Positions 1 to 40,070 of a stretch of DNA of 40,070 nt are shown in pieces. Position numbers and translations under genes: made by a program. Numbering within the stretch: the stretch's first letter is position 1; every line of letters begins with the position of its first letter. This DNA is from a virus (taxonomy: Duplodnaviria > Caudoviricetes). The stretch is from the IMG/VR virus record IMGVR_UViG_3300037047_000284, positions 1 through 40,070 of that record. One strand, 5' to 3'. The notes under the pieces were generated by a model. That model had not been told where the DNA came from. It did not search any database and saw only the letters and a list, made by a program, of their open reading frames with translations.

Positions 1-1626
1 ATGTCAGGTATGGGTCTGGTCTATTCGTACAGTCGGTTTTCTGATCCCAGCCAGGCCAAGGGCCACAGTCTGGAGCGGCAGGCCGCTTATGCCGCCAAGT
101 GGGCCGCTGAGCATGGCCTGAAGCTGGATGAGGCGCTGTCGCTGCGCGATGAGGGCTTGTCCGCCTACCACCAGCGCCACGTCAAATCCGGCGCGCTGGG
201 CGTGTTTCTGGCTGCCGTGGAGGGCGGCAAAGTGCCGCCGGGCTCGGTGCTGGTGGTCGAAGGGCTGGACCGCCTCTCCCGGGCCGAGCCCATCCAGGCC
301 CAGGCCCAACTGGCCCAGATTGTAAATGCCGGCATCACCGTCGTCACCGCATCGGACGGCAAAGCCTACAGCCGCGAAAGGCTGAAGGCCAACCCGATGG
401 ACCTGGTCTATTCGCTGCTGGTCATGATCCGCGCCCACGAAGAGAGCGACACCAAGAGCAAGCGCGTGCGCGCCAGCATCGTGCGCCAGTGCCAGGGCTG
501 GCTCGACGGCACCTACCGCGGCCTCATCCGCAACGGCAAAGACCCGGTGTGGCTGCGCCTGGCCGCCGGCCGCTGGGAACTCATCCCCGAGCGCGCCGAA
601 GCCGTGCGCACCGGCATCGACCTCTACCGCCGCGGCCACAGCGCCACGCGCATCATCAACGAGCTGACCGAGCGCCAGCTGTCGCTCACCGGCCGCGGCC
701 CCCAGGCCCTGCAGATCTACCGGCTGATCCACCAGCGCGCCCTGATCGGCGAAAAAGAGATCGCGGTCGACGGCCGCGCCTACCGCCTGCCCGGCTACTA
801 CCCCGCCCTGCTCACCGAAGCCGAGTGGACCGATCTGCAAACCCTCGCCGGCACACGCGGGCGCCGCGCCCCGGCCGGGCCCGTGCCGGGCATCCTCACC
901 GGCATGCGCATCACCCGCTGCGGCTACTGCGGCCGCGCCCTGGTGGGCCAGAACATCGGCACCCGCAAGCGGCGCGAAGACGGCGGCATCCACGACGGCC
1001 ACCGCCGCCTGCACTGCACCAGCTACGCCAACGGCGGCTGCCCCGTGCCCGGGTCGTGCTCCGTCGCGCCCATCGAGCGCGCGCTCATGGGCTACTGCTC
1101 CGACATGGTCAACCTGCAGGCGCTCTACGGCGGCGATCGCGCGGCCGAACCGCGCGCGCGCCTGGCCAGGCTGCGCGCCGAGGCCGCCGAGCTGGGCACC
1201 CAGCTCGAACGCCTGACCGACGCCATGCTTCAGGCCGGCGCCGACGGCGGCACCCCGGCCACCTTCGTGCGCCGCGCGCGCGAACTCGAAGCCCGCCAGG
1301 CCGACAACGCCCGCGAGGCCGCCCAGGCCGAGCGCGACCTGTCCGCCGTGGCCCGCACAGACCTGACCGGCGCTGACGAAGCCTGGCGCGCGCTGGCGGC
1401 CGGCGTCGAAGCGCAAGACGATGACGCGCGCATCCAGGCGCGCCAGCTGGTGGCCGACACCTTTGAGCGCATCGTCGTCTACCGCCGCGGCGTGGACCCG
1501 GCCGCCACGCCCGCCGGCGTGATGGACGTGATGCTGCTGGCCAAGGGCGGCGCGATGCGCCTGCTGCGCATCAACGCGGCCGGCGCCGTGATCGCGGCCG
1601 ATGAGATGCTGCAGGGCGAGGGGTGA
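1..1626 (+). CDS. Large serine recombinase (phage integrase)
   Basis: N-terminal resolvase motif YSYSRFS...Q...SLERQ and VEGLDRLSR; recombinase domain; Zn ribbon CGYCG...C...C; coiled coil. Confidence 0.93.
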   Translation: MSGMGLVYSYSRFSDPSQAKGHSLERQAAYAAKWAAEHGLKLDEALSLRDEGLSAYHQRHVKSGALGVFLAAVEGGKVPPGSVLVVEGLDRLSRAEPIQAQAQLAQIVNAGITVVTASDGKAYSRERLKANPMDLVYSLLVMIRAHEESDTKSKRVRASIVRQCQGWLDGTYRGLIRNGKDPVWLRLAAGRWELIPERAEAVRTGIDLYRRGHSATRIINELTERQLSLTGRGPQALQIYRLIHQRALIGEKEIAVDGRAYRLPGYYPALLTEAEWTDLQTLAGTRGRRAPAGPVPGILTGMRITRCGYCGRALVGQNIGTRKRREDGGIHDGHRRLHCTSYANGGCPVPGSCSVAPIERALMGYCSDMVNLQALYGGDRAAEPRARLARLRAEAAELGTQLERLTDAMLQAGADGGTPATFVRRARELEARQADNAREAAQAERDLSAVARTDLTGADEAWRALAAGVEAQDDDARIQARQLVADTFERIVVYRRGVDPAATPAGVMDVMLLAKGGAMRLLRINAAGAVIAADEMLQGEG

Positions 1627-22968: not shown

Positions 22969-22996
22969 AATGTGCCAGAAAAGTCTAAGGTGTAAA
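22969..22996 (-). promoter_or_regulatory. Candidate late promoter (pR'-like)
   Basis: TTTACA-N16-CACATT at the end of the Q-like gene, shortly upstream of a terminator. Confidence 0.5.
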
Positions 22997-23910: not shown

Positions 23911-24056
23911 GAGCGGCCATCAGCACACGCATCCATGCGCCTGCGCGCTGGCAGGGGCGCTGTGCCCCTGGGCGTTCCGCCGCCCAAACCCGCTTTGGGA
24001 ATGAGCCCAGCACACGGGCGCCATTCAGCGCCGTGTCCTGTGTGTTGAGGGTGGTA

Positions 24057-26687: not shown

Positions 26688-26771
26688 TCAGAGCGCAGAG
26701 CGCCCGCCGGAGCCTGCACGCCAGCGCGCCATTTGTTGTTGTTGCCATGGGACCCTTGTATTTCTTGAAAC

Positions 26772-27092: not shown

Positions 27093-27198
27093 TCGTCACC
27101 ACCTGTTAAGTGCGCAACCGAACAGACCGACGCGCCACCCTCAACCAGAGTAGCCTCCCCGGTCATGCAGCCGCAGGTTTTTGGAAGCGAAAAGAGGC

Positions 27199-27615
27199 TC
27201 ATGCCGCGGCCTTTCCTTGCAGCAGCTGCCGCATCAGCTTGTTCTCAGCCTCGGCAGTCGCCGCACGCTGCTCAGCCAGCTCGGCGCGGCGCTCAGCCTC
27301 CGTCTTGATCATCACCAGCGTGCAGCCCACCTGGTAGGCCATCCACTCGGCGTACACCGCGTTGCCCACCATCTCGCAGAAGCGGGCCAACAGGTCCGCC
27401 TGCAGCGTTGCCTTGCCCTTCTTGATGTTCGAGAAGTACCCCGCGTCGATACCCAGCGCCAGGTAGATCTCCTTGTCCTCCAGCCCGCTCACGCTGCACG
27501 CCAGAGTGAAAGCCGCCGCCGCTGTGCGCTGCGCCCGCACCGTCTCCATCGGCACCGAAGCCGCCTGCGCCGACCGCGCCAAGGGGAGTTCTGCCTGGTC
27601 TTCAATCGTCGTCAT
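27199..27615 (-). CDS. CII-like transcriptional regulator
   Basis: HTH LEDKEIYLALGIDAGYFSNIKKG, C-terminal coiled coil; downstream of cro. Confidence 0.7.
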   Translation of the reverse strand: MTTIEDQAELPLARSAQAASVPMETVRAQRTAAAAFTLACSVSGLEDKEIYLALGIDAGYFSNIKKGKATLQADLLARFCEMVGNAVYAEWMAYQVGCTLVMIKTEAERRAELAEQRAATAEAENKLMRQLLQGKAAA

Positions 27616-27768
27616 GATTTTTGAACCGAGTTGAGTACCCCTTTGGGGCAAAAAAAACGAGCATTGGAGGCATGAACACCACCAACACTCGCAGCCAGAA
27701 AGGAGGGCCGGTCCAGCCCGATACAGTGGAGGCTCTGACCCCAACTACCGACCGAAAAGGACCGACCC

Positions 27769-28014
27769 ATGAACGAAGATGCACTCGACCAGCTCAGCGG
27801 CCAAATCTCGGCGATCTCATCAACTCTGGCGAGCCTCATGACAACGCTGCCCCCGGCAATGGCGGCAGAGGCTGCGACGCATCTGGAAGCGAACCGCTGC
27901 GTGCTGCTGGAGGAAGACGACATTCAGGAGACGCCGGCAAGTCAATCCGCAACACGAGACCTGCTTCTGACTGGGTACGTAGATCTTCTTCGAGCAGTCG
28001 CGTCACACGGCTGA
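27769..28014 (+). CDS. Hypothetical protein antisense to the PR operon (moron-like)
   Basis: RBS AAAGGA before ATG; 81 aa helical-looking protein. Confidence 0.55.
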   Translation: MNEDALDQLSGQISAISSTLASLMTTLPPAMAAEAATHLEANRCVLLEEDDIQETPASQSATRDLLLTGYVDLLRAVASHG

Positions 28015-28112
28015 TCGAAGACAGCATCCGCCTGGTGGCCTTTCCCACCAGGTCTACCCCGGGTTCTGAACCGCTGATCCGGCCACACATTGCCAGCCGT
28101 GCTCTGGATGAA

Positions 28113-28343
28113 CTACGCATGGGTCACCCCCTGCTCTGCGGGCTGCGGGGCCTGCGGGTTGTTGGCTGCTGGCGGAGTGGCGGATTCGCTCAATGGGAAC
28201 CGCATGCGCAATACCTGAAGCCAGCCATCTGGAACGCTGTCGCGGCTGAGCCAGTTGCTCACACGGCTCTGGCTGATTCCGAGAGCTCTGGCAAGGGAAG
28301 TCACACCGCCAGTGGCCCGTATTGCGTGGTTGAGTTCGTCCAT
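28113..28343 (-). CDS. cro: Cro-like repressor (YdaS-type HTH)
   Basis: AIRATGGVTSLARALGISQSRVSNW; divergent from cI; PR TTGATC-N17-TAAAGT lies 8 nt from the ATG, suggesting a leaderless mRNA. Confidence 0.85.
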   Translation of the reverse strand: MDELNHAIRATGGVTSLARALGISQSRVSNWLSRDSVPDGWLQVLRMRFPLSESATPPAANNPQAPQPAEQGVTHA

Positions 28344-28351
28344 AGCTACGG

Positions 28352-28392
28352 ACTTTATCACAGTCGTGATTTTTGATCAACACATACGCATT
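28352..28392. promoter_or_regulatory. OR operators and PR
   Basis: ATCAC-AGTC-GTGAT (28357-28370) and AACACATACGCATT (28379-28392) match the OL operators; -35/-10 on the minus strand overlap them. Confidence 0.75.
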
Positions 28393-28395
28393 GTC

Positions 28396-29097
28396 ATGAT
28401 CACGACGATGGAAACCATCGCCGCGCGGCTAAAATATGCACGCAACCGCAGAGGGTGGACTCAGGGCCAGCTCGCGGTGGCGTCCGACGTGAGCCAGGGC
28501 ACCATTGGCAACATTGAATCCGGCAATAGGCAGGCAAGAGCCAGCCTTATCAAGATAGCGAGAGCCCTGGGGGTTAGCTACGATTGGCTTGCAGACGGCA
28601 TCGGGAACCCAGATACCGCCAACGAACCAATCCACCACGTTGCCGCCGAACCCAGAGCGATTTACCTTGCCGACAACCCAGAGTTTCCAGCAGTTCGCCG
28701 CGTCAAGCTGCGACTGCGCGCCGGCGTGACCGGCTTTGCAGTTGAGTCAGACGACGATGAAGCTGCACCCATCGTTTTTCGCCGAGAGTGGTTTGACCGC
28801 AATGGCTACCAGCCCGAAAAACTGCTCGCTGTGCGCGTGAGCGGCAATAGCATGGAGCCCGGTCTCTTTGATGGCGACACCGTGGTCATCAACACCGCCC
28901 AAACCGCACCCGTTGATGGCGCCGTGTTCGCCATCAACTACGAAGGCGAACCCGTCATCAAACGCCTGGTGCGCGATGGTGGCCAATGGTGGCTTAGCTC
29001 AGATAACCCTGATCAGTCGCGCCACCCAAGAAAAATCGCCAACGGTGACAGCCTGCTGGTCGGCCAGGTGGTACACAAGCAGAGCGAACGCATCTAG
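28396..29097 (+). CDS. cI: CI repressor (XRE HTH plus S24 autopeptidase); alternative start 28408
   Basis: WTQGQLA...VSQGTIGNIESG; AG cleavage site; VSGNSMEP catalytic Ser; VIKRL catalytic Lys. Confidence 0.93.
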   Translation: MITTMETIAARLKYARNRRGWTQGQLAVASDVSQGTIGNIESGNRQARASLIKIARALGVSYDWLADGIGNPDTANEPIHHVAAEPRAIYLADNPEFPAVRRVKLRLRAGVTGFAVESDDDEAAPIVFRREWFDRNGYQPEKLLAVRVSGNSMEPGLFDGDTVVINTAQTAPVDGAVFAINYEGEPVIKRLVRDGGQWWLSSDNPDQSRHPRKIANGDSLLVGQVVHKQSERI

Positions 29098-29098
29098 T

Positions 29099-29569
29099 TC
29101 ACTCAACCTGCGGCGGCTTTTCCTGCTGGAACTCCAGTATCTGGGCTCCGTTCTGGTATAGCTCAAGCTGCACCAAAATGTTTTTTGATGCCTTCAGCCA
29201 ACTGAAAAACAGTGGACCGTTTTCGATCACGACATAGTCCGAGCTCATGTCGGCGGCAGCACTTGCCTTAAAGATCATTTTTGGCGACGTGTCGAAGCGG
29301 ACTGCAATCGAGCAATTCTGCGAGCACAAGATCTGCCCCTTGTCCACAGAAACAACAACCATCGGATCCACATCACCACCCGTAGTGACGTGGATTGCCC
29401 CATGGTTCTTCCCCTGGTAAGGACTGCGGAGATTGATGGTATTGAGGCTTTTCAGCTTGGCTGTCAAAACCTCCACACCAGTCATCTTGTCAGTAGACCT
29501 ACTCATGGTCCAAGGGAAAGCAGCGCTACATGCGCTCGCCAGCAAAACCCCGAATAAAACAGATCGCAT
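29099..29569 (-). CDS. Exported protein (moron), possible superinfection exclusion factor
   Basis: Signal peptide MRSVLFGVLLASACSAA; RBS GGGAGG; lower GC; lies between cI and PL. Confidence 0.65.
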   Translation of the reverse strand: MRSVLFGVLLASACSAAFPWTMSRSTDKMTGVEVLTAKLKSLNTINLRSPYQGKNHGAIHVTTGGDVDPMVVVSVDKGQILCSQNCSIAVRFDTSPKMIFKASAAADMSSDYVVIENGPLFFSWLKASKNILVQLELYQNGAQILEFQQEKPPQVE

Positions 29570-29628
29570 ACAAGCCTCCCTAGGTAACGCTAGTTTAACG
29601 GGGCGCTGAGAAATAAATTCGCCCAAAA

Positions 29629-29670
29629 ATCACGTATGTGTTGACAACAATAAATCACGTCCGTGATAAT
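29629..29670 (+). promoter_or_regulatory. PL promoter with OL operators
   Basis: TTGACA(29641)-N18-GATAAT(29665); operators ATCAC-GTAT-GTGTT (29629-29642) and ATCAC-GTCC-GTGAT (29654-29667). Confidence 0.85.
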
Positions 29671-29698
29671 GCCCTCACGTTCAACAACGGAGGGCCAG

Positions 29699-30187
29699 AT
29701 GGCACAGCAACACACCCGATCAACGCCGCCCCGTGAAGGGCAGCACATCGGCCCAGGCGCGGCCCACAGCCGCCGGGTCGGCATAGGCCGCCTGCCCCAT
29801 CGCATCCTGCTGGTGGTGCTGCCGGGCTACCTCTTCAGCCCGCTGCCAGCGCTCGCTCAGGGCGCGGCCTCGGCGGGCGCCCAGACACTGCTCCAGCCGG
29901 TCCAGCTCGATCAGGCCGGGCTGCGCACGGTGAACGCTGGGGGCGCCGCTCTGGGCCAGCAGCCACGCGCGGACTGGCTCACTGGCCTCGTTGAGTTCCT
30001 TTCGGCGGTCCCGCCAGAGTGCCGTACGGTGCCCAATCAGCACCCCAAGAAGGAATGTCAGCAGCGGCAGCGCGGGGTGCTGGAGAGCTTCAAGGAACGT
30101 CATCCGGTGGCCTTCAATCTGGTGGTGGCGGGCCTGACTTTACTCGCCGGCTTCTACGTCGGTGGTGGCTTCAAAGGGGGCGAGTGA
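29699..30187 (+). CDS. First PL-operon ORF, hypothetical; overlaps an antisense gene
   Basis: RBS GGAGGG before ATG 29699; stop overlaps the next ATG (TGATG). Confidence 0.45.
   Translation: MAQQHTRSTPPREGQHIGPGAAHSRRVGIGRLPHRILLVVLPGYLFSPLPALAQGAASAGAQTLLQPVQLDQAGLRTVNAGGAALGQQPRADWLTGLVEFLSAVPPECRTVPNQHPKKECQQRQRGVLESFKERHPVAFNLVVAGLTLLAGFYVGGGFKGGE
29720..30103 (-). CDS. Single-TM membrane protein antisense to the PL operon
   Basis: N-terminal TM LPLLTFLLGVLIG then basic RDRRKE; protein-like composition. Confidence 0.55.
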   Translation of the reverse strand: MTFLEALQHPALPLLTFLLGVLIGHRTALWRDRRKELNEASEPVRAWLLAQSGAPSVHRAQPGLIELDRLEQCLGARRGRALSERWQRAEEVARQHHQQDAMGQAAYADPAAVGRAWADVLPFTGRR

Positions 30188-30399
30188 TGCTCAAGCAACA
30201 CACCACCGCAACCATGGCGAGCCAGCCCAACACCATCGCCCAGCAATGCGAAGCCGCCATGGCCCGCATCCGCGCCAGCATCAACCGCAGCGCCGGCCAA
30301 CACCTGCGCGCCATGAAGGCCGCCAGCGCCGAGCGCGCCGCCCTGGCCGCCTCGGTTGGCAAAACACTGGGCAGCGGCCAGAAAGTCGGCGCCGCATGA
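30187..30399 (+). CDS. Hypothetical protein
   Basis: Coupled ORF in PL operon. Confidence 0.6.
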   Translation: MLKQHTTATMASQPNTIAQQCEAAMARIRASINRSAGQHLRAMKAASAERAALAASVGKTLGSGQKVGAA

Positions 30400-30617
30400 C
30401 CAGCATCACCGCCCCCATCCTGCCCGCCTGCAACCGCCCGGCCGACCGCTGTGTGCACACAGGCCGCGTGCAGATCGGCATCGCCCACCAGCGCCCGCCG
30501 CTGCCCATCGAAAGCCGCGACGCGCTCACCCTGCAGCGCGCGCTGCTCGACCCCCGCACCGCTCAACAACCCGGCCTGCTGGCCCAGATCTTCGGAGGAC
30601 TCTACAAATGGCTCTGA
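30396..30617 (+). CDS. Hypothetical protein
   Basis: ATGA overlap; TGRVQIGIAH...LQRALL. Confidence 0.65.
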   Translation: MTSITAPILPACNRPADRCVHTGRVQIGIAHQRPPLPIESRDALTLQRALLDPRTAQQPGLLAQIFGGLYKWL

Positions 30618-31141
30618 CCAACCCCAACCACCACCGCCCGCCGCGCCATCTGCCGCAGTCCGAGAGCCAGCGCCAGGAGCTGCTGCGCCGCATCGACGCC
30701 GCCGAACTCGCCGAACTTCGCTCCGAGCGCGCCCGCGCCGAGATCAAGGCCCACATCACGCGCACCAGCAAAGGCCTCCGCACCGTGCAAGTCATCAACG
30801 AAGGCCTGCGCACCGGCACCATCCGCCTGCAGCCCGAGCCCACCGCCGCCACCAGCCTGACGGCCGACAAGCTCCTGCTGCGCGCTGACGGCGGCAAGCC
30901 CGTGCTGCGCGTCGTGCCAGGCAGCGGCGACCCCGTGCAAGGCAACACCAGCCCGCGCTGGGTGGGTGTCGACCTGGCCACCAAGCCCGACCAGACCGTC
31001 CACTGGTCACCCCCGCCCCACCCCCACAAGCCGCCCGCCCTGACGCCCTACGAGCGCCGCGCCGTGCTCGGCATCGTCGTCGTCTACCTGCTGGCATTTG
31101 CGGGCCTGACCGCCATCACCATCTGGGGCCGCGCGGCCTGA
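30608..31141 (+). CDS. Hypothetical protein with C-terminal TM segment
   Basis: RBS GGAGGA; C-terminal AVLGIVVVYLLAFAGLTAITIW. Confidence 0.65.
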   Translation: MALTNPNHHRPPRHLPQSESQRQELLRRIDAAELAELRSERARAEIKAHITRTSKGLRTVQVINEGLRTGTIRLQPEPTAATSLTADKLLLRADGGKPVLRVVPGSGDPVQGNTSPRWVGVDLATKPDQTVHWSPPPHPHKPPALTPYERRAVLGIVVVYLLAFAGLTAITIWGRAA

Positions 31142-31153
31142 CCCGAGCTCACC

Positions 31154-31441
31154 ATGGCCCGTGCCCTGCCCACCCTGCCACCGGTGACCGACGACCACCG
31201 CCACGCCGCCTTTGTGGCCATGGGCTGGGTTGGCTGGACCTACGAATCCGCCATGGCCGACGCCGTGCGTGGCCGCGTCGTCGAAGCCCGCGCCCACCTG
31301 CTGCGCAAGCAGCAATGGGCCGCCCAGCGCTGGCAGCGCACGCCCTGGCCCCCAGCGCCCGCCCCCAGAAGCCTGCAGCCCTACCAACGGGCCCACCTGT
31401 CCGACCTCAAGCGAGCCGCCGCCGGCGACCGCGAAGACTGA
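31154..31441 (+). CDS. Hypothetical protein
   Basis: 95 aa; ends in DLKRAAAGDRED, a tail typical of small phage early proteins. Confidence 0.65.
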   Translation: MARALPTLPPVTDDHRHAAFVAMGWVGWTYESAMADAVRGRVVEARAHLLRKQQWAAQRWQRTPWPPAPAPRSLQPYQRAHLSDLKRAAAGDRED

Positions 31442-31470
31442 TCCATCCAACCCAATACGCAACCACCCCC

Positions 31471-31674
31471 ATGGCCACCGTTCACCTCACCCTGACCGAC
31501 ACGCCCACCGGCGGCGTCGAAGTCCACACCGACTTCGTGCCCGGCGTCGGCGCGCCCTGCAGCAAAGCCCAGGCCGCCGCACTGGAAATCTTCAACCGCA
31601 CCCGCCGCGAGTGGGGCGTGTCCGGCATCGAAGTCGTGCACATCAACCAACTCCCGCTGGAACTGCCCGCATGA
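31471..31674 (+). CDS. Hypothetical protein
   Basis: 67 aa; ATGA overlap with next gene. Confidence 0.65.
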   Translation: MATVHLTLTDTPTGGVEVHTDFVPGVGAPCSKAQAAALEIFNRTRREWGVSGIEVVHINQLPLELPA

Positions 31675-32360
31675 GCACCATCGCCCCCGCCACCCTGGCC
31701 ACCATGCGCTACCTCAAAACCCACGGCCTGAGCACCCGCGCCGAGCTTCGCAAGGCCGTGCCAGAGCTCGCCAAGGGCACGCTCGACAACCTGCGCGGCG
31801 CCCGCTACATCGCGACCGACGACGTCACCAAAGAAACCCGCTACGCGCTCACGCCCTTGGGCACGAAGCGCCTGCAGGCGCATGAAGACGCGCTCGCCAG
31901 CGGCCTGCCCGTGCACAGCCGGCGCTGGAACAAAGACGAAGCCGACAAGCTGAAAGACATGGCCAGCAACGCCCAGATCGAGCGCGCCATCATCGACACC
32001 CTGCGCCGCGCATCGGGCCCGATCACGCTGCCCGAAGTCGCCCGCCGGCTCAGCCAGGCCGACAACATGATCCGCCCCAGCCTCACCACGCTGGTGCAGG
32101 CCGGCACCGTTTGCATCACCGGGCGCTCCCCCCTGCGCTACGCCATGCCCGAGCCCAGCCCGGCAGCGCGCGCCGGCTCCATGGTCGTGCACGCCGCCAG
32201 CACACGCGGCGACTACGAAGGCCAGGAACTCAAGCGCAACCCCGGCATCCCTGACGACCGCTTCGAAGCCTCCCGCCTGCCCAGCCGCATGGGCGACCGG
32301 CTGCATTTTCCAGATGGGCGCGTGCTGGCGATGCCAAACCTGCGCGAGGTGATCGCGTGA
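31671..32360 (+). CDS. Putative tandem winged-helix DNA-binding protein
   Basis: Two wHTH-like segments (YALTPLG; ITLPEVARRL...LTTLVQAG). Confidence 0.6.
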   Translation: MSTIAPATLATMRYLKTHGLSTRAELRKAVPELAKGTLDNLRGARYIATDDVTKETRYALTPLGTKRLQAHEDALASGLPVHSRRWNKDEADKLKDMASNAQIERAIIDTLRRASGPITLPEVARRLSQADNMIRPSLTTLVQAGTVCITGRSPLRYAMPEPSPAARAGSMVVHAASTRGDYEGQELKRNPGIPDDRFEASRLPSRMGDRLHFPDGRVLAMPNLREVIA

Positions 32361-34456
32361 ACACCTTCGCCCTCATCCCCCTGGCCCACATCGTTGCCAG
32401 CCTCACCAACCCGCGCAAGACGTTCAACCAAGAGCGCCTGGCCGAGCTGGCCGAGAGCATCCGCGCCAGTGGGGTGCACCAGCCCGTGTTGCTGCGCCCG
32501 CTGCCCGGCTCGCGCGTGGCCGACACCGCGCACCACGACCCCCGCCCACAGTACGAGCTGGTGAGCGGCGAGCGCCGCGTGCGCGCCAGCGCCATGGCCG
32601 AACAGGACAGCGTGCCCGCCATGATCCGCGCCCTGAGCGACGACCAGGTGCTCGACATCCAGCTGGTGGAGAACCTGCAGCGCGAAGACCTCACGCCGCT
32701 GGAAGAGGCCGAAGGCTACGACCACCTGATGCACGCCCACGAGCCTGCCCTGAGCGCCGACGACGTGGCCCAGCGCATCGGCAAGAGCCGCGCCTACGTC
32801 TACGCCCGCCTGAAGCTGCTCAACCTGTGCCACGAAGGCCGAGAAGCCCTGCGCCTGGGCCAGATCGACGCCAGCCTCGCGCTGCTCATCGCCCGCATCC
32901 CCAGCACCAAGGTGCAGGCCGACGCGCTGGGCAACGTGTTCAACCCCATGACCGGCGCCGCCATGAGCGTGCGCGAGGCCAGCGCGCTGATCCAGCGCCA
33001 GTACATGCTGCGCCTGCCAGAGGCCCGCTTCAACCCCTCCGACGCCGCCCTCGTGCCCAGCGCCGGCAGCTGCAGCCACTGCAGCAAGCGCACCGGCGCC
33101 GACCCCGACATCTTTGCCGACGTCAAGGGCGCCGACGTCTGCACAGATCCGCCCTGCTTCCGCACCAAGACCGAAGCCCACCAGGCGCAGCAACTGCAGG
33201 CCGCAGCCGACAGCGGCGCCACCGTCATCACAGGGCGCGAGGCGCAGGAACTCATGCCCCTGCAGACCGACACCCGCGTCGAGGGCTACCTGCGCCTGGA
33301 CGACGCCCGCGACACCCCCACCGGCGGCCCCAAGACCATCCGCGAACTCGTGGGCCACCTCATGGAGCCCGCCGGCATCAAGCCCACCCTGATCGAGAAC
33401 CCCAACAGCCCGGCGCATGAGCTCATTGCGCTGGTGACGCGGGCCGAGGCTGGGCGGTTGTTCGACCTGGCGAAGGCCGCCAGCGGCAAGGGCAAAGGCA
33501 AGGCCGCTGGCGGGCAGGCAGGGACCGCCACAGCGCCGCAGGAGGTGGACGAAGGCAAGGCCGCCGCCGAAGCGTTTGAACGCACCTGGCGCCAGCGCGT
33601 GGTGGCTGCGGCGTGGGAAAACATCCGAGACCGCGAAGAAGGCATGTACGCCCTGCCCATGGGCGCCATCACTCACCTTGCCAAAGTCCAGGCCGACGCG
33701 CTGGGCGTGGCCCAGGCCCGTGCGCTGTGCGACCTGCTGCAGCTCGGCTCCGTCGCGCCCAAGGAAGCCATCGACGAATGGGCCATCAGCCAGAAAGACC
33801 CCGAGCGGGCCCTCGCGCTGCTGCTCATGGCCGAAGCCGCCAGCCACCTGCCCGGCCACCCCATGGCCGACGAAAGCCGCACGCTGCTTACCACCATCGC
33901 CGCCGACCGTGGCGTGGGTGTGGACACCGGCGCCATCATCGAGCAGGCCGGCGAAGAGGCCAAGGCCCAGCTCAAGGCGAAGCAAGACGCCCGCGAAGCC
34001 GAACAAAAATCACCCGATCTACCCCTTTCCTCTGCTGCGCAAGCGAGTGGGGTGCGGGGGGGTAAAGGCAAGGCCAAAAAACCCGGTTCCGCTGCGCTGG
34101 CGCACCGTGTGCCAAAAACCACCGAGCAGGAAGCAATTCAAGGCATCGCTGCCGCGATGCAAGGCCTAGGAGAGGAAGGGGCCGACGCCGGCCCCTCGGG
34201 GTCCGATCCAGACGGCGCAAGCGCCGTGGGGCCAGGTGGTCGGGCGACTTCGCCCGACGCTAGCGCCTCGGAGCTGGTTCCGGGCGCACGTGTCCGGTTT
34301 GTCGGCGTTCACATGACGGGCCAGCTCGGCCGCCTGAAAGAGGCCGCAGGGCTTGAAGGCAAGTGGCTGGTGAACGTCGACGGCCTCACCAGCGACTACG
34401 TGTTCGAACCGCACGAGTTCCAAGTCGTGGCCGAGGAAGGCGAAGCAGCATGCTGA
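32357..34456 (+). CDS. ParB/RepB/Spo0J-family protein with long C-terminal extension
   Basis: NPRKTF...LAESI...GVHQP, YELVSGERRVRA, ENLQREDL, HTH; Cys cluster CSHC...CTDPPC. Confidence 0.88.
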   Translation: MNTFALIPLAHIVASLTNPRKTFNQERLAELAESIRASGVHQPVLLRPLPGSRVADTAHHDPRPQYELVSGERRVRASAMAEQDSVPAMIRALSDDQVLDIQLVENLQREDLTPLEEAEGYDHLMHAHEPALSADDVAQRIGKSRAYVYARLKLLNLCHEGREALRLGQIDASLALLIARIPSTKVQADALGNVFNPMTGAAMSVREASALIQRQYMLRLPEARFNPSDAALVPSAGSCSHCSKRTGADPDIFADVKGADVCTDPPCFRTKTEAHQAQQLQAAADSGATVITGREAQELMPLQTDTRVEGYLRLDDARDTPTGGPKTIRELVGHLMEPAGIKPTLIENPNSPAHELIALVTRAEAGRLFDLAKAASGKGKGKAAGGQAGTATAPQEVDEGKAAAEAFERTWRQRVVAAAWENIRDREEGMYALPMGAITHLAKVQADALGVAQARALCDLLQLGSVAPKEAIDEWAISQKDPERALALLLMAEAASHLPGHPMADESRTLLTTIAADRGVGVDTGAIIEQAGEEAKAQLKAKQDAREAEQKSPDLPLSSAAQASGVRGGKGKAKKPGSAALAHRVPKTTEQEAIQGIAAAMQGLGEEGADAGPSGSDPDGASAVGPGGRATSPDASASELVPGARVRFVGVHMTGQLGRLKEAAGLEGKWLVNVDGLTSDYVFEPHEFQVVAEEGEAAC

Positions 34457-36441
34457 ACCCTCAATTCATCCTTCCCATCGCCAACGAGCTGGTGGTCGAC
34501 CTCTTTGCAGGCGGTGGCGGCGCATCCACCGGCATCGAGCAGGCCATCGGCCGGCATGTCGACATCGCCATCAACCACGACCCCGAGGCGATCAGCCTGC
34601 ACACCGCGAACCACCCGCAAACGCGCCACTTTGTGAGCGACGTTTTTGAGGTTGACCCCGTGGTGGTCACAGACGGCCAGCCGGTGGGCCTGCTCTGGGC
34701 ATCGCCCGACTGCAAACACTTCAGCAAGGCGAAGGGCGGCAAGCCCGTGAGCAAGAAGATCCGCTCGCTGGCCTGGGTGGTGGTCAAGTGGACCGCCGCC
34801 GTCAAGCCGCGCGTCATCTGCCTGGAGAACGTCGAAGAGTTCCAGACCTGGGGACCGCTGGGCCCTGACAACCGCCCGTGCCCCAACCGCAAGGGCCAGA
34901 CCTTCCAGCGCTGGAAGCGGCAACTGGAGCGCATGGGCTACGTGGTGGAGCACCGAGAGCTGCGCGCCTGCGATTACGGCGCCCCCACCATCCGCAAGCG
35001 CCTGTTTCTCGTGGCCCGGCGTGATGGCATGCCCATCGTCTGGCCCGAAGCCACCCACGGAGCGCCCGACAGCCTGCCCGTGAAGCAGAAGAAGCTCAAG
35101 CCCTGGCGCACCGCCGCCGAGTGCATCGACTGGAGCGTGCCCGCGCCCAGCATCTTCGAGCGCAGCAAGCCGCTGGCCGACGCCACGTGCCGGCGAATCG
35201 CAAAGGGAATCATGCGGTACGTGGTGAACGCGGCCGATCCGTTCATAGTTCAAGGAGACAGCCGTGGCATACAGCATCAGCAGGGATCCCACACTCACGC
35301 CTCACCAAAAAGCAAAGCTGATTGGGGAAAAACAAGCAGCGGAGCACAAGCTCATGATGGAGTGGGCTGCGGAGTTCGAGCCCTATTTTCAAGCGATACA
35401 GGCCGGCATCCCCATGAGCCAGACACCCTGGGCCCCCAAAGGCCAACCGATGCGGCTTTGGAGGGATTTCCCACCGCCACCACTTCAACAAAAACCGACC
35501 GGGGTGCTTGCCACGATCACGATCCGGCAGCAAGCGCCCCAGCAAATAGCGTTGAGCTTTTAGCACCCACCCTGGTGCAGACCGGCTACGGCGAACGCGA
35601 AGGCCAGGCGCCCCGCGCGCTCGACCTCGGCAAGCCGCTGGGCACCGTCGTCGCCGGGCAGAAGCATGCGCTGGTGTCCGCCTTCCTCGCCAAGCACTAC
35701 ACCGGCGTGGTCGGCAGCGATCTGGCCGCCCCCATGGGCACCGCCACCACGGTGGACCACCACAGCCTGGTGGCCGCGCACCTGGTGCACCTCGGGCACG
35801 GCGAGGGCAAAGACGGCACCAAGCGTTTCAGCCACGGCATCCGCGACGTCACCCAGCCGCTCAACACCGTGACAGCGCAAGGGATGCCCGCCGGCGTCGT
35901 CACGGCGCACATGGTCACCATCGACAACAACAGCAGCCAGGGCGGCCACACCGCCGCAACTGCGCCGCTCAAGACCACCGTCACCGAAAACCGCCATGCG
36001 CTGGTCACCAGCCACATGCTCAAGCTGCGCGGCGACAACGTGGGCAGCGCGGCCGCCGAACCGCTGCACACCATCAGCGCCCAGGGAACCCACCACGGCG
36101 AGGTGCGCGCCTTCCTGATCAAGTATTACGGCACCGACCAAGACCCCGCCCTGCGCGAACCGCTGCACACCGTCACCACCAAAGACCGCTTCGGCCTCGT
36201 GACCATCAAAGGCCAGGACTACGCCATCGTGGACATCGGGCTGCGCATGCTCACCCCGCGCGAGCTGTACCGTGCCCAGGGCTTCCCCGAGAGCTACGCC
36301 ATTGACAAAGGCGCCGACGGCCACCCCCTCACCAAGACCGCGCAAGTGCGCATGTGCGGCAACAGCGTGTGCCCGCCGCTGGCTCGGGCCCTGGTGGCCG
36401 CGAACTACGTCGAAGCGCAGGATCTGAGGGCCGCAGCATGA
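34450..36441 (+). CDS. C5 cytosine DNA methyltransferase (orphan)
   Basis: DLFAGGGG, SPDC, LENV, R.RLF, motifs IX-X RMLTPREL...GNSV; repeated PLxTVT units. Confidence 0.92.
   Translation: MLNPQFILPIANELVVDLFAGGGGASTGIEQAIGRHVDIAINHDPEAISLHTANHPQTRHFVSDVFEVDPVVVTDGQPVGLLWASPDCKHFSKAKGGKPVSKKIRSLAWVVVKWTAAVKPRVICLENVEEFQTWGPLGPDNRPCPNRKGQTFQRWKRQLERMGYVVEHRELRACDYGAPTIRKRLFLVARRDGMPIVWPEATHGAPDSLPVKQKKLKPWRTAAECIDWSVPAPSIFERSKPLADATCRRIAKGIMRYVVNAADPFIVQGDSRGIQHQQGSHTHASPKSKADWGKTSSGAQAHDGVGCGVRALFSSDTGRHPHEPDTLGPQRPTDAALEGFPTATTSTKTDRGACHDHDPAASAPANSVELLAPTLVQTGYGEREGQAPRALDLGKPLGTVVAGQKHALVSAFLAKHYTGVVGSDLAAPMGTATTVDHHSLVAAHLVHLGHGEGKDGTKRFSHGIRDVTQPLNTVTAQGMPAGVVTAHMVTIDNNSSQGGHTAATAPLKTTVTENRHALVTSHMLKLRGDNVGSAAAEPLHTISAQGTHHGEVRAFLIKYYGTDQDPALREPLHTVTTKDRFGLVTIKGQDYAIVDIGLRMLTPRELYRAQGFPESYAIDKGADGHPLTKTAQVRMCGNSVCPPLARALVAANYVEAQDLRAAA
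35264..35563 (+). CDS. Nested out-of-frame 99-aa gene inside the methyltransferase
   Basis: RBS AAGGAG before GTG; ORF coincides with a lower-GC insertion in the MTase variable region. Confidence 0.6.
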   Translation: MAYSISRDPTLTPHQKAKLIGEKQAAEHKLMMEWAAEFEPYFQAIQAGIPMSQTPWAPKGQPMRLWRDFPPPPLQQKPTGVLATITIRQQAPQQIALSF

Positions 36442-36980
36442 CCACCCGCACCAAACCCCGCCGCCAGCCCGCCGACCCGCTGCACCGCGTCACCGCGCGC
36501 GGCATCGACCCGCGCAACCCCTGGGTACAGGCCGCCATGCGCAAGGCCGTTGAAGCCGAGGCGCGCGAGGCCGAAGAACGCCGCCAGGTGGCGCGCGCCG
36601 AGTTCGCCAGCCAGATCACCAGCACCCGGCTGCGGCTCTACAGCATGGCGCACGGGCAAGACGCCACCGAGATGATCGCCCAGCTCATGGTCGCCATCGG
36701 CACCCCCTGTGAAGCCGGCGCCCAGACCCCCGGCATCGGCCGCGCCGCACCCTGGGTGCGCCAGCTTCATGGCGCCCTGCGAACGCTGCAGGCCATGTGC
36801 CTGGCCGGCTACCTCTGGGACAGCGACACCGCCCACGCGCTCGACCGCGCCATCGAGGTGGCCGAAGAAGAGCGCGACGGCATCAGCGTCGAAACCTTCG
36901 CCCGCGCCTGGGTCGAGGCCAACGGCCTGGCCGCCAGCGTGCTGGCGCACCAGATTGACAAAGGGAGCATTGCAGCATGA
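36438..36980 (+). CDS. Hypothetical protein (180 aa)
   Basis: ATGA overlap with MTase stop; phage-typical codon usage. Confidence 0.7.
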   Translation: MTTRTKPRRQPADPLHRVTARGIDPRNPWVQAAMRKAVEAEAREAEERRQVARAEFASQITSTRLRLYSMAHGQDATEMIAQLMVAIGTPCEAGAQTPGIGRAAPWVRQLHGALRTLQAMCLAGYLWDSDTAHALDRAIEVAEEERDGISVETFARAWVEANGLAASVLAHQIDKGSIAA

Positions 36981-37002
36981 CCACAACGATAGGAGCCTCA
37001 TC

Positions 37003-37257
37003 ATGATCGGCACCCAACCCACCGGCGCCGTGCCCGGCGTCGTGATCTCAGCCGTGGCCCACGAAGGCCTGACCGTCACGGTCGACGGCAAGCCCGCGCG
37101 GCTGGCCATCGTGCTGGACGACGGCACCGTCGTGGCCGCCGGCACCGACGTGGCCAGAGAAGCCCAGGCCGTGGCCGTGAACCTCTACCGGGGGTTCCTG
37201 AAGGGGAACGGGCATCTGCGCGTGCTGAGCCCGTCTATTCCGACGGGGAAGCATTGA
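37003..37257 (+). CDS. Hypothetical protein (84 aa); stop codon lies in the core of the first attC
   Basis: RBS AGGAG; TGA within ATTGAAC. Confidence 0.7.
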   Translation: MIGTQPTGAVPGVVISAVAHEGLTVTVDGKPARLAIVLDDGTVVAAGTDVAREAQAVAVNLYRGFLKGNGHLRVLSPSIPTGKH

Positions 37258-37311
37258 ACACAGAGCGCAGCGGACCGCCGTAGGCGGTCCGACTGGCGCG
37301 CCGAGTTGAAC
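37253..37311 (-). other. attC site A (59 bp)
   Basis: Plus strand: ATTGAAC-ACAGA-GCGCAG-CGGACCGCC-GTA-GGCGGTCCG-[A]-CTG[G]CGC-GCCGA-GTTGAAC; on the minus strand R'' = GTTCAAC fits RYYYAAC. Confidence 0.88.
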
Positions 37312-37333
37312 AGCACCACACCGGAGAGAAACG

Positions 37334-37804
37334 ATGGACGTTGAACAAAACATGATTGCATTTGAAACAGCGATGCGATGGAACGGCTTTAAAAGCCCGA
37401 CGCGAAGCTCGACCGGCGACGGATACACCTACGCCAGGGACGCCGACAGATTCAGAGGCTGGGAATTGCATCGCCAATCTCAGGAACTGGAAATTGAGTA
37501 CCTGCAAGCCATTGAAGCCGCTGCGCGCAACCTGGTGAAGGTCAAAGGACACACGATGAATGAGACGACGCAGCCCGCCGTGGCGGGTACGGTTGAACCG
37601 ACAGTTAGGAGCTCACCCGCGCCGACGCGGACGCCGCACGGCTTTTCATTTGGTGCGGCCGATGTGTCGGCCAATGCCAGCGACGAACGCGGGAACGTGT
37701 GGCTTGGCATCAAGGGCAAGCGCGCGAAGCTGACCGTGCATGTGACGCCGAGCGGACTGCTGCGCGTGTGGATGAACGGCATGCAAGTGCTGACGACAAA
37801 GTGA
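37334..37804 (+). CDS. Cassette ORF, apparent fusion of a truncated cassette-1 gene and the cassette-2 gene (internal start 37556)
   Basis: RBS GGAG at 5' end; internal RBS AAAGGA plus ATG 37556; reads through half attC B. Confidence 0.65.
   Translation: MDVEQNMIAFETAMRWNGFKSPTRSSTGDGYTYARDADRFRGWELHRQSQELEIEYLQAIEAAARNLVKVKGHTMNETTQPAVAGTVEPTVRSSPAPTRTPHGFSFGAADVSANASDERGNVWLGIKGKRAKLTVHVTPSGLLRVWMNGMQVLTTK
37574..37610 (-). other. Half attC site B (one arm missing)
   Basis: CCCGCC-GT-GGCGGG mini-hairpin then CGGTT[G]AAC-CGACA-GTTAGGA; no complementary AAC-N5-GTTAACCG arm upstream. Confidence 0.65.
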
Positions 37805-37805
37805 C

Positions 37806-37856
37806 ACCCAGCACCACCGATGACCGGCGCTAGTCCGGTCGATTTAAGAGTTGGGC
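37806..37856 (-). other. attC site C (51 bp; AGC in place of AAC)
   Basis: ACCCAGC-ACCACC-GAT-GACCGG-CGCTAGT-CCGGTC-[G]-ATT-TAAGA-GTTGGGC. Confidence 0.78.
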
Positions 37857-37877
37857 GAAGGCCCGGAGAGGATAAAC

Positions 37878-38108
37878 ATGATTCACCCAAAGAACACATG
37901 CAGTGAGTGCATGTATTCAGCCACAAGAGGCGGAAGCGAAAAACTTGAGTGCCGCCGGTATGCGCCTCGGCCGGAGTTCATTTTCGCGGAAAAGGAACTG
38001 CACCTGTTGGCGCCTCGCTTTCCAGTCGTTACGCCAACCGACTGGTGTGGGGAATTCTGGCAGCAGCCCAACACAGAGCTAAGCCGCAAAGGAGGCGCTG
38101 ATGACTGA
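37878..38108 (+). CDS. Cassette-3 ORF, small four-Cys metal-binding protein
   Basis: CSEC...C...WCGEF; C-terminus PNTELSRKGGADD is encoded by attC D. Confidence 0.75.
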   Translation: MIHPKNTCSECMYSATRGGSEKLECRRYAPRPEFIFAEKELHLLAPRFPVVTPTDWCGEFWQQPNTELSRKGGADD

Positions 38109-38166
38109 CCGAAACACGACGGCTCCGCCCGCCGACGAATGTCGGCGCTTGAGCGGCAAGTTGGGG
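38066..38166 (-). other. attC site D (101 bp) containing an RBS, a start and a stop codon in its loop
   Basis: GCCCAAC-ACAGA-GCT-AAGC...GCTT-[G]-AGC-GGCAA-GTTGGGG; internal AAAGGAGG...ATG and GCCGAC-GAAT-GTCGGC hairpin. Confidence 0.88.
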
Positions 38167-38310
38167 CACAAAGCGAGGCCAGAAGACCATGAATGGCTTA
38201 CGGAACTGCGCCAGGACAACGACATGCTTCGATGGGCGCTGCGTGCACTGCTGAACAACCCAGCAGACGCCGAGACGCGGCGCCTCTCGTTTCTCGCCCT
38301 GGGGGAGTGA
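38101..38310 (+). CDS. Cassette-4 ORF 1, hypothetical (69 aa)
   Basis: RBS AAGGAGG and ATG inside attC D. Confidence 0.7.
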   Translation: MTDRNTTAPPADECRRLSGKLGHKARPEDHEWLTELRQDNDMLRWALRALLNNPADAETRRLSFLALGE

Positions 38311-38591
38311 TGGACCGTTTTGAAATTGGCCGGAGCTACGGCGTGATGCACCTTGATGACCGTCAAGAAACAGTCACGATTGCTGGACGAGATATTGCAT
38401 CCGTCACGTTCGAGGATGGGCGCAGGGCTCGCGTGTTGCATGGCCTGGCGCCGGATGGCAGCGATGAAGAGGTGTTGCGCATTGACGAGCGCGGCGCCTT
38501 TGCAGCAGGTGGCGTTGTGAGGGCGTGCCATCTGCGCCCCAACACCGAAGGCCAGCGGGCCGGAACGGGTCCGGCTGGGCCGCAGAGTTGA
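38310..38591 (+). CDS. Cassette-4 ORF 2, hypothetical (93 aa)
   Basis: TGATG coupling, RBS GGGGAG; reads through attC E and stops in GTTGAAC. Confidence 0.7.
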   Translation: MDRFEIGRSYGVMHLDDRQETVTIAGRDIASVTFEDGRRARVLHGLAPDGSDEEVLRIDERGAFAAGGVVRACHLRPNTEGQRAGTGPAGPQS

Positions 38592-38593
38592 AC
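38537..38593 (-). other. attC site E (57 bp)
   Basis: CCCCAAC-ACCGAA-GGC-CAGC-GGGCC-GGAACG-GGTCC-[G]-GCTG-[G]-GCC-GCAGA-GTTGAAC. Confidence 0.88.
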
Positions 38594-38613
38594 AACCTAC
38601 ACCGGAGACCGAA

Positions 38614-38769
38614 ATGGCCTGCCCGAAATGCGGCTGCAAATTGCACTACCAGTACGACACCGGCTGGGATGGCGAGCAGCAACCCGAGAACCTGGAACGC
38701 TGCGCCTCCTGCGGCGAGGTGTTCGACATTGAAGACTCAACCGAGGAAGAAGATGAGCCAACAAGCTGA
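38614..38769 (+). CDS. Cassette-5 ORF 1, 51-aa zinc-ribbon protein (not in ORF track)
   Basis: MACPKCGCK...RCASCGEVFDIEDSTEEEDEPTS; RBS GGAG. Confidence 0.75.
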   Translation: MACPKCGCKLHYQYDTGWDGEQQPENLERCASCGEVFDIEDSTEEEDEPTS

Positions 38770-38968
38770 AACGCTGGCAGACGCTCTGCCGAAGGAAATG
38801 GCCCGCGTTCGCACCGTGCTGGGCTACTACAAGGAAATCGGCCCCGCTGGCGCGATTGGCGCCATGTTCATCGAGCAGGACTTGCAAGCCGCTGACCGTG
38901 CCGTCATGAGCGGCGACGTGGTTGCGATGCTTCAGGCCCTGGAGGCGCTTCGCGGCGTCACCGGCTGA
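38753..38968 (+). CDS. Cassette-5 ORF 2, hypothetical (71 aa)
   Basis: RBS GAGGA; MSQQAETLADALPKEMARVR...GPAGAIGA...GDVVAML. Confidence 0.75.
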   Translation: MSQQAETLADALPKEMARVRTVLGYYKEIGPAGAIGAMFIEQDLQAADRAVMSGDVVAMLQALEALRGVTG

Positions 38969-38969
38969 T

Positions 38970-39086
38970 GTTGTTCAGCACCAATTCGGGAACAGGCCAA
39001 GTAGGATAACACCGGAGCGAAACATGCAAGTCATTGATTCACAAGAGCAAGCAGCCATTACGCACGACGACACACCGGCGTTATGC
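38970..39086 (-). other. Putative attI region
   Basis: Cassette 5 ends at GTTGTTCAGC (38970-38979) with no attC hairpin following; adjacent to the intI 5' end. Confidence 0.6.
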
Positions 39087-40070
39087 GACAAGCCAGCCGA
39101 GCAGCCCAAAAAGTTGCAGCAGCTGGTGGCCGACGCCATCGCCGTGCGGCACTACAGCCGCCGCACCAACGAAGCCTACTGGCACTGGATCAAACGCTTT
39201 GTGATGTGGTCAGGCAAGCGCCACCCAGCCAGCATGGGGCAGATCGAGGTCGGCCAGTTCCTGACCTGGCTGGCCGCTGATCAACACGTTTCTGCCAGCA
39301 CCCAACGCCAGGCGCTGGCCGCCGTCCTGTTCCTGTACAAGCAGGTCCTGGGCGTCGACATCGGCTGGGTCGAAGGCATCGTGCGCGCCAAACAGTCGCA
39401 GCGCTTGCCCGTCGTCATGACCGTTGATGAAACCCGCGCCCTGCTCGCCCACACCAGCGGCACGCCCGGGCTCTTCCTGCGCATGCTGTACGGCACGGGC
39501 CTGCGCCTCATGGAGGGCCTGAACCTGCGCGTGAAGGATCTCGACCTTGAGCAGCGCCAGATCATCGTGCGCGCCGGCAAAGGCAACAAGGACCGCGTCA
39601 CCATGCTGCCCGAGCGCCTGGTGCGGCCACTGCGCGAACTGCTGGAAGAGCGCCGCCGCTGGCACCATGTGGACCTGTCAACGAACCACGCCAGCGTGGA
39701 CCTGCCTTTTGCCATGGCGCGCAAATACCCCAACGCGGGCAAAGAGTGGGCCTGGCAATACGTCTTCGCCACGCCCGACTACCACACCAACCCCGACACC
39801 GGCGAACAACGCCGCCACCACCTGTTCGACTGGACCATCCAGCGCCACATGAAGTCCGCGCTGCAGGCCGCCGGCATCAGCAAGCCCGCCACGCCTCACA
39901 CCCTGCGCCACTGCTTCGCGACCCACCTTCTCCAGGCCGGAACCGATATCCGCACGATTCAGGAACTGCTGGGCCACAGCGACGTGGAGACCACCATGAT
40001 TTACACCCACGTGGTGGGACAGACAGCCGGCCGCGGCGCCGTGAGCCCGCTGGATAGAATGGCCGCATGA
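39024..40070 (+). CDS. intI: Integron integrase (tyrosine recombinase, IntI family), 348 aa
   Basis: RHYSRRT..AY..WIKRF, VSASTQ.QAL, LYGTGLR, GKGNKDR, integron-specific insertion VDLPFAMARKYPNAGKEWAWQYVF, RRHH, HTLRHCFATHLL, LLGHSDV.TTMIYTHV; RBS GGAG. Confidence 0.95.
   Translation: MQVIDSQEQAAITHDDTPALCDKPAEQPKKLQQLVADAIAVRHYSRRTNEAYWHWIKRFVMWSGKRHPASMGQIEVGQFLTWLAADQHVSASTQRQALAAVLFLYKQVLGVDIGWVEGIVRAKQSQRLPVVMTVDETRALLAHTSGTPGLFLRMLYGTGLRLMEGLNLRVKDLDLEQRQIIVRAGKGNKDRVTMLPERLVRPLRELLEERRRWHHVDLSTNHASVDLPFAMARKYPNAGKEWAWQYVFATPDYHTNPDTGEQRRHHLFDWTIQRHMKSALQAAGISKPATPHTLRHCFATHLLQAGTDIRTIQELLGHSDVETTMIYTHVVGQTAGRGAVSPLDRMAA
39027..39039 (-). promoter_or_regulatory. IHF consensus site
   Basis: AATCAA-TGAC-TTG matches WATCAA-N4-TTR. 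Confidence 0.5.

Follow-up and report, generated by a model that had tools for sequence, protein, structure and literature searches.

Integrons have been described in phages before. A survey of 10,705 phage genomes recorded three complete integrons, one lone intI and 17 attC clusters, the complete ones deriving from Vibrio and Shewanella chromosomal integrons or from class 1 integrons, and phage attC sites were recombined with IntI1 (Qi et al. 2023, PMC9892861). In integron theory, strand choice is held to place cassette genes before the cassette promoter, Pc, as set out in PMC2727003 and PMC5027507. Here we analyse IMG/VR record IMGVR_UViG_3300037047_000284, a 40,070-nt stretch of DNA from a virus of the Caudoviricetes (hereafter the window), which ends in an array of attC cassettes followed by an integron integrase gene, intI (Table 1; L numbers denote the loci with which it was compared). 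We consider it highly probable that this locus is a complete, phage-resident integron whose place is after the last early genes and before attP and whose cassette genes are reversed; IntI likely moves the cassettes, and the phage early promoter likely transcribes both cassettes and intI. The DNA presents an intact IntI, an attI1-like site, attC bottom strands on the + strand, reversed open reading frames (ORFs), cassettes that have complementary ends and vary between relatives, and a position inside attR.

Like the cases of Qi et al. (PMC9892861), the locus combines intI, attI and attC cassettes in a phage genome, with methyltransferases among the cargo of its lineage. However, the IntIs of those cases are only 42-54% identical to that of the window, and two of the published examples, the TJE1 cluster and the M16-3 integron, carry their genes on the attC top strand; the window is set apart by a phage-resident IntI clade, a fixed place before the phage integrase and reversed genes. 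With the class 1 platform (L193) it shares the catalytic residues, the IntI insertion, the attI layout and an array upstream of and divergent from intI, but IntI1 is 51% identical and belongs to a separate clade, so that the window is not a class 1 integron; unlike L193, it has no LexA box, no detected Pc, no resistance genes and no transposon, and its genes are reversed. Sedentary chromosomal integrons (VchIntIA/IntI4 and the betaproteobacterial arrays among L035-L191) resemble it in their signature attC families and small genes without assigned function, and the window's attC sites are matched by a model built mostly on arrays of this type; it differs in the 1-10 cassettes seen, the mobile phage setting, the bottom-strand ORFs and a predicted control by repressor. 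In inverted-integrase integrons, as described in PMC4889954, intI is likewise co-oriented with the cassette genes, but there intI is turned relative to attC whereas here the genes are; with intI on + and the attC top strand on -, the window falls outside that class. It is also no phage cluster of attC sites lacking an integron integrase (CALIN), as intI and attI adjoin the array. Neither a phage-resident IntI clade nor reversed cassette arrays were found in the literature covered, most subscription papers lying outside that coverage. A preliminary description of this DNA, made from its sequence without database searches, had called integrons very rarely described as integral parts of phage genomes. 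Phage integrons as such are already published; what sets the present one apart is the reversed cassette genes, the fixed place beside the phage integrase and the phage-enriched IntI clade.

The integrase, its sites and the strand of the cassette genes

The window IntI reading frame is uninterrupted by stops and scores 434 bits against TIGR02249 (cut-off 265). R161, K186, H292, R295, H318 and Y327 are all present and are invariant in an alignment of seven sequences that includes IntI1. The closest solved structure is that of VchIntIA/IntI4 (2a3v, E 4e-78), and the IntI-specific insertion is evident from an alignment to it that is gapless except for one residue across 2a3v residues 10-320; the alignment is continuous with IntI1 as well. 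The intact IntI, insertion and six catalytic residues claimed in the preliminary description are thus borne out. The ratio of non-synonymous to synonymous change (dN/dS) in intI is 0.10-0.36 against eight relatives and 0.13-0.17 against the closest of them, suggesting purifying selection.

The attC sites proposed alongside are also real, amounting to four whole sites and one half. Each whole site (A, C, D and E) has, as had been described, AAC or AGC and GTT cores, 5-6 nt spacers, an L stem and an extrahelical G on the same strand, here + (3' arm). When this succession (AAC/AGC, then a spacer, an L stem whose 3' arm has one extra G, a second spacer and GTT) was scanned for, 37201-39020 gave five matches on + and none on -, compared with an average of 0.18 and at most 3 in 1000 dinucleotide shuffles; the remaining 37.2 kb of the window gave three (+) and four (-). 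The fifth match in the array, 38671-38727, is weak and lies inside an ORF, and was taken as chance. A covariance model trained on 57 attC sites, none of them from the window, ranked E, A and C top across the whole window, all on the - strand; 53 of these sites came from arrays outside the IntI clade described below and four from L037, which was found to belong to that clade only after training. Site D, whose loop encloses a ribosome-binding site and start codon, had no match by the model and resembles a site in L017. Half site B, the 5' arm of which was likely lost by deletion, was matched by neither model nor scanner. The family of site C is common to L001, L002, L033, L112 and other viral contigs, and its motif occurs in 11 viral contigs (blastn and motif search). 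Rfam gave no match anywhere in the window. Two cruder approaches were set aside: a loose AAC..GTT box scan returned 216 matches in the window and is useless alone, and from the many chance repeats listed by a repeat finder only the A/E pair and the inverted ends of the last cassette stood out. The GC content of the array is 56-63%, versus 69% upstream.

Next to intI we identified an attI site, which the preliminary description had lacked. It consists of a crossover at 38978/38979, a 5-nt spacer, an L box (38985-38991), 12 nt and a DR1-like repeat (39004-39010); attI1 of L193 has the same order and spacing, with 13 nt before the direct repeat. This layout recurs in the clade loci compared, and variable sequence begins at the crossover. 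The junction reads AG/C in the window and AA/C in its relatives (38977-38979). A LexA box before intI is common, though not universal, in canonical integrons. No such box (CTG-N10-CAG) was found within 200 bp before the window intI, whereas L193 and L034 have one; the perfect CTGT-N8-ACAG box of L034 (9975-9990) overlaps the attI direct repeat, and its counterpart in the window (38998-39013) is degenerate, as in other close relatives. Scanning for promoter consensus sequences, we saw no candidate Pc on the - strand within or ahead of intI, a simple scan of this kind being apt to miss weak promoters.

The strand of the array follows from its hairpins. In attC bottom strands, the extrahelical G sits in the arm that faces the cleaved AAC (PMC2727003; PMC5027507), and by the placement of this G the + strand of the window is the attC bottom strand. 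For an array that lies upstream of intI with attC in the normal sense, attI is expected next to intI, and this is where it is found. The array therefore lies upstream of intI and divergent from it, as is normal, while every cassette gene is reversed: all window cassette ORFs are on +, and none on the top strand, where canonical cassettes carry their genes. This reversal, like attI, is an addition to what had been described.

The same arrangement was seen across the clade. In 36 clade loci plus L192, all 85 covariance-model matches (four of them the L037 training sites) fell on -, while an ATG-initiated ORF with a ribosome-binding site was present on + in 64 of 89 clade cassettes and on - in three. 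In a control set of 95 cassettes from 26 non-clade loci, the corresponding counts were 22 on + and 32 on -, and the longest ORF lay on - in 78. PHROGs matches among clade cassette ORFs numbered 20 of 77 on +, seven of them to DNA methyltransferases, and 0 of 72 on - (149 of the 164 candidate ORFs entered this test, the 15 shortest, of 58 aa or less, being left out). When the same model was applied to the published TJE1 cluster and M16-3 integron, sites and genes were found on the same strand, as is normal. The longest-ORF test is weak in the GC-rich cassettes of the clade, and folding energy does not pick the strand.

Table 1. Features of the integron, followed by other features of the phage mentioned in the text (window coordinates).
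Feature	Position	Strand	Basis or remark
84-aa backbone gene	37003..37257	+	100% aa identical in L002/L194; stop in left box of attC A
attC A	37253..37311	- (top strand; bottom strand on +)	Covariance model 16.7 bits; scanner; near-identical sites in L342
156-aa ORF of apparently fused outermost cassettes (553 bp, 37259-37811)	37334..37804	+	ORF; second start 37556 inside old site
Half attC B	37574..37613	-	Sequence: terminal hairpin and 3' arm (37591-37613) remain
attC C, AGC core	37806..37856	-	Scanner; covariance model 11.3 bits, weak (E 0.74)
76-aa ORF of 260-bp cassette (37812-38071)	37878..38108	+	Stop inside attC of next cassette
attC D, 101 nt	38066..38166	-	Scanner, 7/7 L-box pairs
69-aa (38101-38310) and 93-aa (38310-38591) ORFs of 471-bp cassette (38072-38542)	38101..38591	+	ORFs
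attC E	38537..38593	-	Covariance model 28.2 bits, E 3.8e-5; scanner 7/7
51-aa zinc-ribbon-like (38614-38769) and 71-aa (38753-38968) ORFs of attI-proximal 436-bp cassette (38543-38978)	38614..38968	+	
attI	38973..39010	-	Comparison with attI1 of L193 and clade loci
Integron integrase IntI, intact, 348 aa	39024..40070	+	TIGR02249
Large serine integrase of phage	1..1626	+	Pfam Resolvase, Recombinase and Zn ribbon; phrog_95
cI-like repressor, helix-turn-helix and S24 peptidase	28255..29097	+	Pfam HTH_3, Peptidase_S24; phrog_4
PL-like promoter candidate, head of early operon	29641..29670	+	11/12 consensus positions

Cassettes, their variation and the IntI clade

The outer junction of the array is fixed, with a cut at 37258/37259 within the left box of attC A, behind an 84-aa gene that phages lacking intI also carry, as an ordinary gene. 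Beyond this junction, related loci differ. L002 has the identical 84-aa gene, then a single unrelated cassette starting from the same AA/C, then attI, while L001, L033, L034, L112 and L114 each carry other cassettes before the same attI. The last cassette of the window has an orthologue in L342 (86% over 496 bp, the homology beginning at the crossover), which there sits behind different cassettes and has AAC where the window reads AGC. The objection that relatives might show an invariant region thus falls, and of the proposed cassette-exchange device of the phage, a complete integron within a prophage and cassettes that vary at one junction are present, recombination by IntI being predicted. 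In L112 the attI-proximal cassette end (1271-1397) is repeated about 1.3 kb upstream (1-97), as if duplicated; the junction at about 1141 in that locus has no clear attC behind it.

The outermost 553-bp unit looks like two cassettes fused by deletion, since its first ORF is cut off at a point where the homologue in L028 goes on, and runs into the half-site B loop. Among the inner cassettes, all three (260, 471 and 436 bp) have complementary ends, with 7/7, 7/7 and 9/10 positions matching. The same relation was found more widely: a site's right box matched the next left box at 4/4 positions in 43 of 54 pairs (mean 3.72), whereas the two boxes of a single site did so in only 15 of 84 (mean 2.32). 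Ribosome-binding sites lie just behind or inside attC on +. Two of the window's cassette ORFs end only within the following cassette's site, and neighbouring cassettes would set the C-terminal tails of their products.

Searches for functions of the cassette genes of the window (Pfam, PHROGs, NCBIfam, Atlas and homologues) gave only weak zinc-ribbon matches and nameless viral clusters. The former concern the 51-aa protein, whose matches in Pfam and NCBIfam are below cut-off. The 76-aa protein has a relative of 40% identity in L334 and matches viral clusters without assigned function at 0.93; the 93-aa protein has four relatives, 79-93 aa in length. The 71-aa gene occurs in 31 viral loci. It stands between attC sites in four of these (L342, L345, L350 and L354), alone between two such sites in the last three, and is without an adjoining covariance-model match in the other 27, including L236, where it is a plain early gene.

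Phylogenetic analysis of 173 IntI sequences (FastTree, with IQ-TREE on 61 of those) placed the window IntI in a 12-member group nested in a 37-member clade, with ultrafast bootstrap support of 100 and 99 respectively. The larger clade holds 23 of the tree's 25 viral sequences, plus seven sequences from genome bins and six from metagenomes, whereas 68 genome and 65 metagenome sequences lie outside it; where the preliminary description had suggested looking for a phage-specific clade, a phage-enriched one appears, although the searches were seeded with the window IntI and its viral share is biased accordingly. At least 119 further proteins have 67% identity or more to the window IntI. Among 36 clade loci, 25 encode an integrase in the first or second long ORF downstream of intI (three have no such ORF in the DNA covered), and virion or lysis genes were seen in 17, with at most four ORFs tested per locus.

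Several loci depart from the common arrangement. In L122 (7404-10121) a clade intI is without its first ~30 residues and without attI, and four attC sites with reversed genes lie downstream of intI rather than upstream. In L005 (1707-10963) the clade integron, which has five attC, is found outside the early operon, with terminase and portal genes on either side. In L342 (2757-2936) intI breaks off after 60 residues with lysis genes next, by deletion or assembly join, leaving a long array with attI and no full integrase. L345, L354, L350, L226, L205 and L240 are phage contigs with reversed attC cassette arrays and no intI in the DNA covered. An IntI-like gene (44%), annotated xerD, is present in the GenBank phage record of Virus Rctr41k (KX853513; L192:4680-5678); the covariance model found no attC upstream of it, nor did it match an attC-like hairpin seen by eye downstream, near 6620-6770.

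Place of the integron in the prophage

The window is a lambdoid temperate prophage, with a Hydrogenophaga-type bacterium as its probable host. By PHROGs and Pfam it has a repressor, divergent operons, a terminase-portal-capsid-tail set, lysis genes and an integrase: the - strand carries endolysin, tail, capsid, portal, terminase, Q-like and primase-helicase genes, and the + strand, after the repressor and up to intI, ParB-like, Dcm and small ORFs. The repressor is listed in Table 1 as its longest ORF, the true start probably lying ~45 codons downstream. The PL-like promoter candidate is the sole + strand match in 27800-40070, where shuffles average 1.0 match, and the early ORFs run near-contiguously from 32357 to intI, with no gap above 76 bp between them. 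This gene layout is consistent with the location first proposed for the integron, the end of the early PL operon. By the lysis module, a low-GC (52%) gene on - (1844-3409) has a GDSL-lipase-like C-terminal part and tail-fibre family matches.

Both window edges are gene ends, the ATG of the serine integrase at the start and the intI stop at the end, and since an identical IntI is recorded on a 49,852-bp contig, the window is a trimmed prophage. Its att ends are predicted from the related record that holds L002 and L232, in which they are observed. At the left end of that record lies the 3' part of host rimO with a phage-supplied start; at the right end, 72 bp past the intI stop, lies the 5' part of host rimO, 93% identical to that of Hydrogenophaga taeniospiralis (L269), followed by the end of the host gene upstream of rimO, which we take to be phaR. 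Among host loci whose flank is long enough, 58 of 78 have this upstream gene beside rimO, and an intI match is absent from all 80 host loci. The serine integrase of the window is 98% identical in amino acids to that of L232; beyond the integration module, the window and this record share only the 84-aa gene and intI.

Sequencing run X1 provides a 504-nt contig (depth 19.4) identical to window 39816-40070, and a contig of the same size and depth that, aligned to L002, reaches ~9148, past the junction at 9114; the two rows are taken as one record from this match in size and depth. An unbroken rimO contig of the run also meets the junction at L002:9114. Run X1 is possibly the source of the window and is not independent of it; runs X2 and X3, with rows of small share, were not used as evidence. 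Once the phage is circular, the serine integrase would come after intI across attP; in L118 a serine integrase is directly 3' of intI, and in L001, a record rated 100% complete, intI lies between the early genes and a tyrosine integrase, with lysis genes next. The att junction past intI, together with the gene order in L118 and L001, thus places the integron inside the phage, intI ending ~72 bp within an attR in host rimO, and disposes of the objection that array and intI might lie outside the prophage boundary.

Some further observations concern the att site. As judged from L232:1-216, L002:9114-9369 and window 1-30, the phage is inserted within the 5' part of rimO and brings its own start for RimO as a substitute, back to back with that of the serine integrase. 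Run X1 holds two mosaic prophages letter for letter (the window array and L002:7651-8819), which share att site and 84-aa gene but differ in their arrays. No terminal repeat is present between the ends of the L002 record. Inspection of the window start led us to abandon a reading of the window as circular, with a 4-base overlap. The L002 record is no sister strain either, sharing almost nothing with window 12001-31000.

Predicted operation, alternatives and significance

If it operates by known integron chemistry, IntI would fold and cut the attC bottom strand at AA/C and join it to double-stranded attI, and new cassettes would enter beside intI, in the part of the operon farthest from the promoter. 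In this layout no Pc would be required, each cassette bringing its own ribosome-binding site on +; because the genes are reversed, a Pc could not express them. Induction would cleave cI at its S24 domain, the early promoter would then turn on cassettes and IntI together, and repressor control would replace the LexA control of bacterial integrons. Since the cassette pool consists of DNA methyltransferases and small early genes of phages, the device would vary anti-host and accessory functions from one phage lineage to another. For the lineage, recombination activity is well supported by comparison; for the window copy it is a prediction.

Some results sit less easily with an active phage integron, in addition to the search bias noted for the IntI clade. 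No window cassette ORF reached E 1e-5 in PHROGs, the outer 553-bp unit is without complementary ends, and the longest ORF, taken alone, is only weakly biased in clade cassettes (50 on + versus 37 on - of 89). In the DNA covered, just one of the 38 loci that carry the 84-aa gene shows intI, and none of 11 with the serine integrase does, many flanks being short; the integron module is accessory within these phages. Finally, the contigs of run X1, an assembly that drops rare forms, show no joint skipping a window cassette that can be assigned to the window phage; a joint at 37261-37839 was rejected as an excision product, the letters between matching an L002-type site.

The alternative that survives best, although we think it improbable, is that the phage integron lineage is real while the window copy is a frozen relic, its array locked by AGC cores and a deleted half site. 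The window has AGC at attI where the L342 copy and close clade loci have AAC, a further AGC core at site C and only half of site B, features that may have slowed this copy, and decay is seen elsewhere in the clade, in the shortened intI of L342 and the missing ~30 residues of L122. Yet the window intI is intact and, compared with its nearest relatives, has a dN/dS of 0.13-0.17; AAC, L stem and extra G are all retained at sites A, D and E; the L box and DR1 of attI are conserved; and AGC can pair with GTT through one G-T wobble.

Less probable again is ordinary phage mosaicism, in which homologous recombination in attC-like repeats, rather than IntI, would account for the cassette differences. 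Mosaicism is strong in these phages, the A/E and C families of attC are near-identical between them, and by the covariance model the 71-aa gene is an ordinary one in 27 of 31 loci. Nevertheless, homology between orthologous cassettes begins and ends at the AA/C crossover, cassette ends complement each other and not their own site, which is the mark of circular cassettes, and attI is not a repeat, yet a different cassette is joined at the same base in each relative.

We give very little credence to a misread orientation, in which + would be the top strand, the IntI clade would select the other strand and the genes would run in the normal sense. Sites of attC are nearly palindromic, so that end complementarity alone cannot separate the strands, and four of the five sites fold slightly better on -; set against this, the extra G lies opposite AAC on +, as in the bottom strands of PMC2727003 and PMC5027507, attI stands at the downstream end of the genes and resembles the attI1 bottom strand on +, each hairpin moves with the ORF to its right (L002, L342), and TJE1 and M16-3 come out in normal orientation under the same model. 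The idea of a host chromosomal integron adjoining or recently captured by the prophage, like the Vibrio and Shewanella cases of Qi et al., has some appeal in a window trimmed at the intI stop with no flank, in the seven clade members from bacterial genome bins and in the absence of intI from most relatives, but is largely refuted, and very improbable, given the 72 bp between intI and the att junction of L002/L232 in rimO, the 80 host loci without an intI match, the run X1 contig that is identical to the window intI end and appears to continue through that junction, the gene order in the complete record L001, the 133 bacterial and metagenome IntIs outside the clade and the normal orientation of the published captured examples.

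Extending the phage-resident integron reading beyond the window, we regard it as somewhat probable that temperate phages of Betaproteobacteria run an integron branch of their own, with a phage-confined IntI clade beside the phage integrase and a pool of backward early-gene cassettes switched by the repressor. Across the whole IntI clade, the chemistry held in theory to place genes before Pc appears to serve a phage operon running the opposite way. If active, such integrons would let phages vary small early genes and methyltransferases site-specifically, besides homologous recombination, and the system, at ~3 kb, is amenable to standard integron assays. The reversed layout would also keep phage cassettes silent in a host integron and, likewise, host (anti-phage) cassettes silent when captured by the phage. 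Genes found both free-standing and in cassettes would reveal cassette birth; as the 71-aa gene occurs as a plain phage gene, by itself in a cassette and together with a second gene in another, the genesis of cassettes can be tested by comparison.

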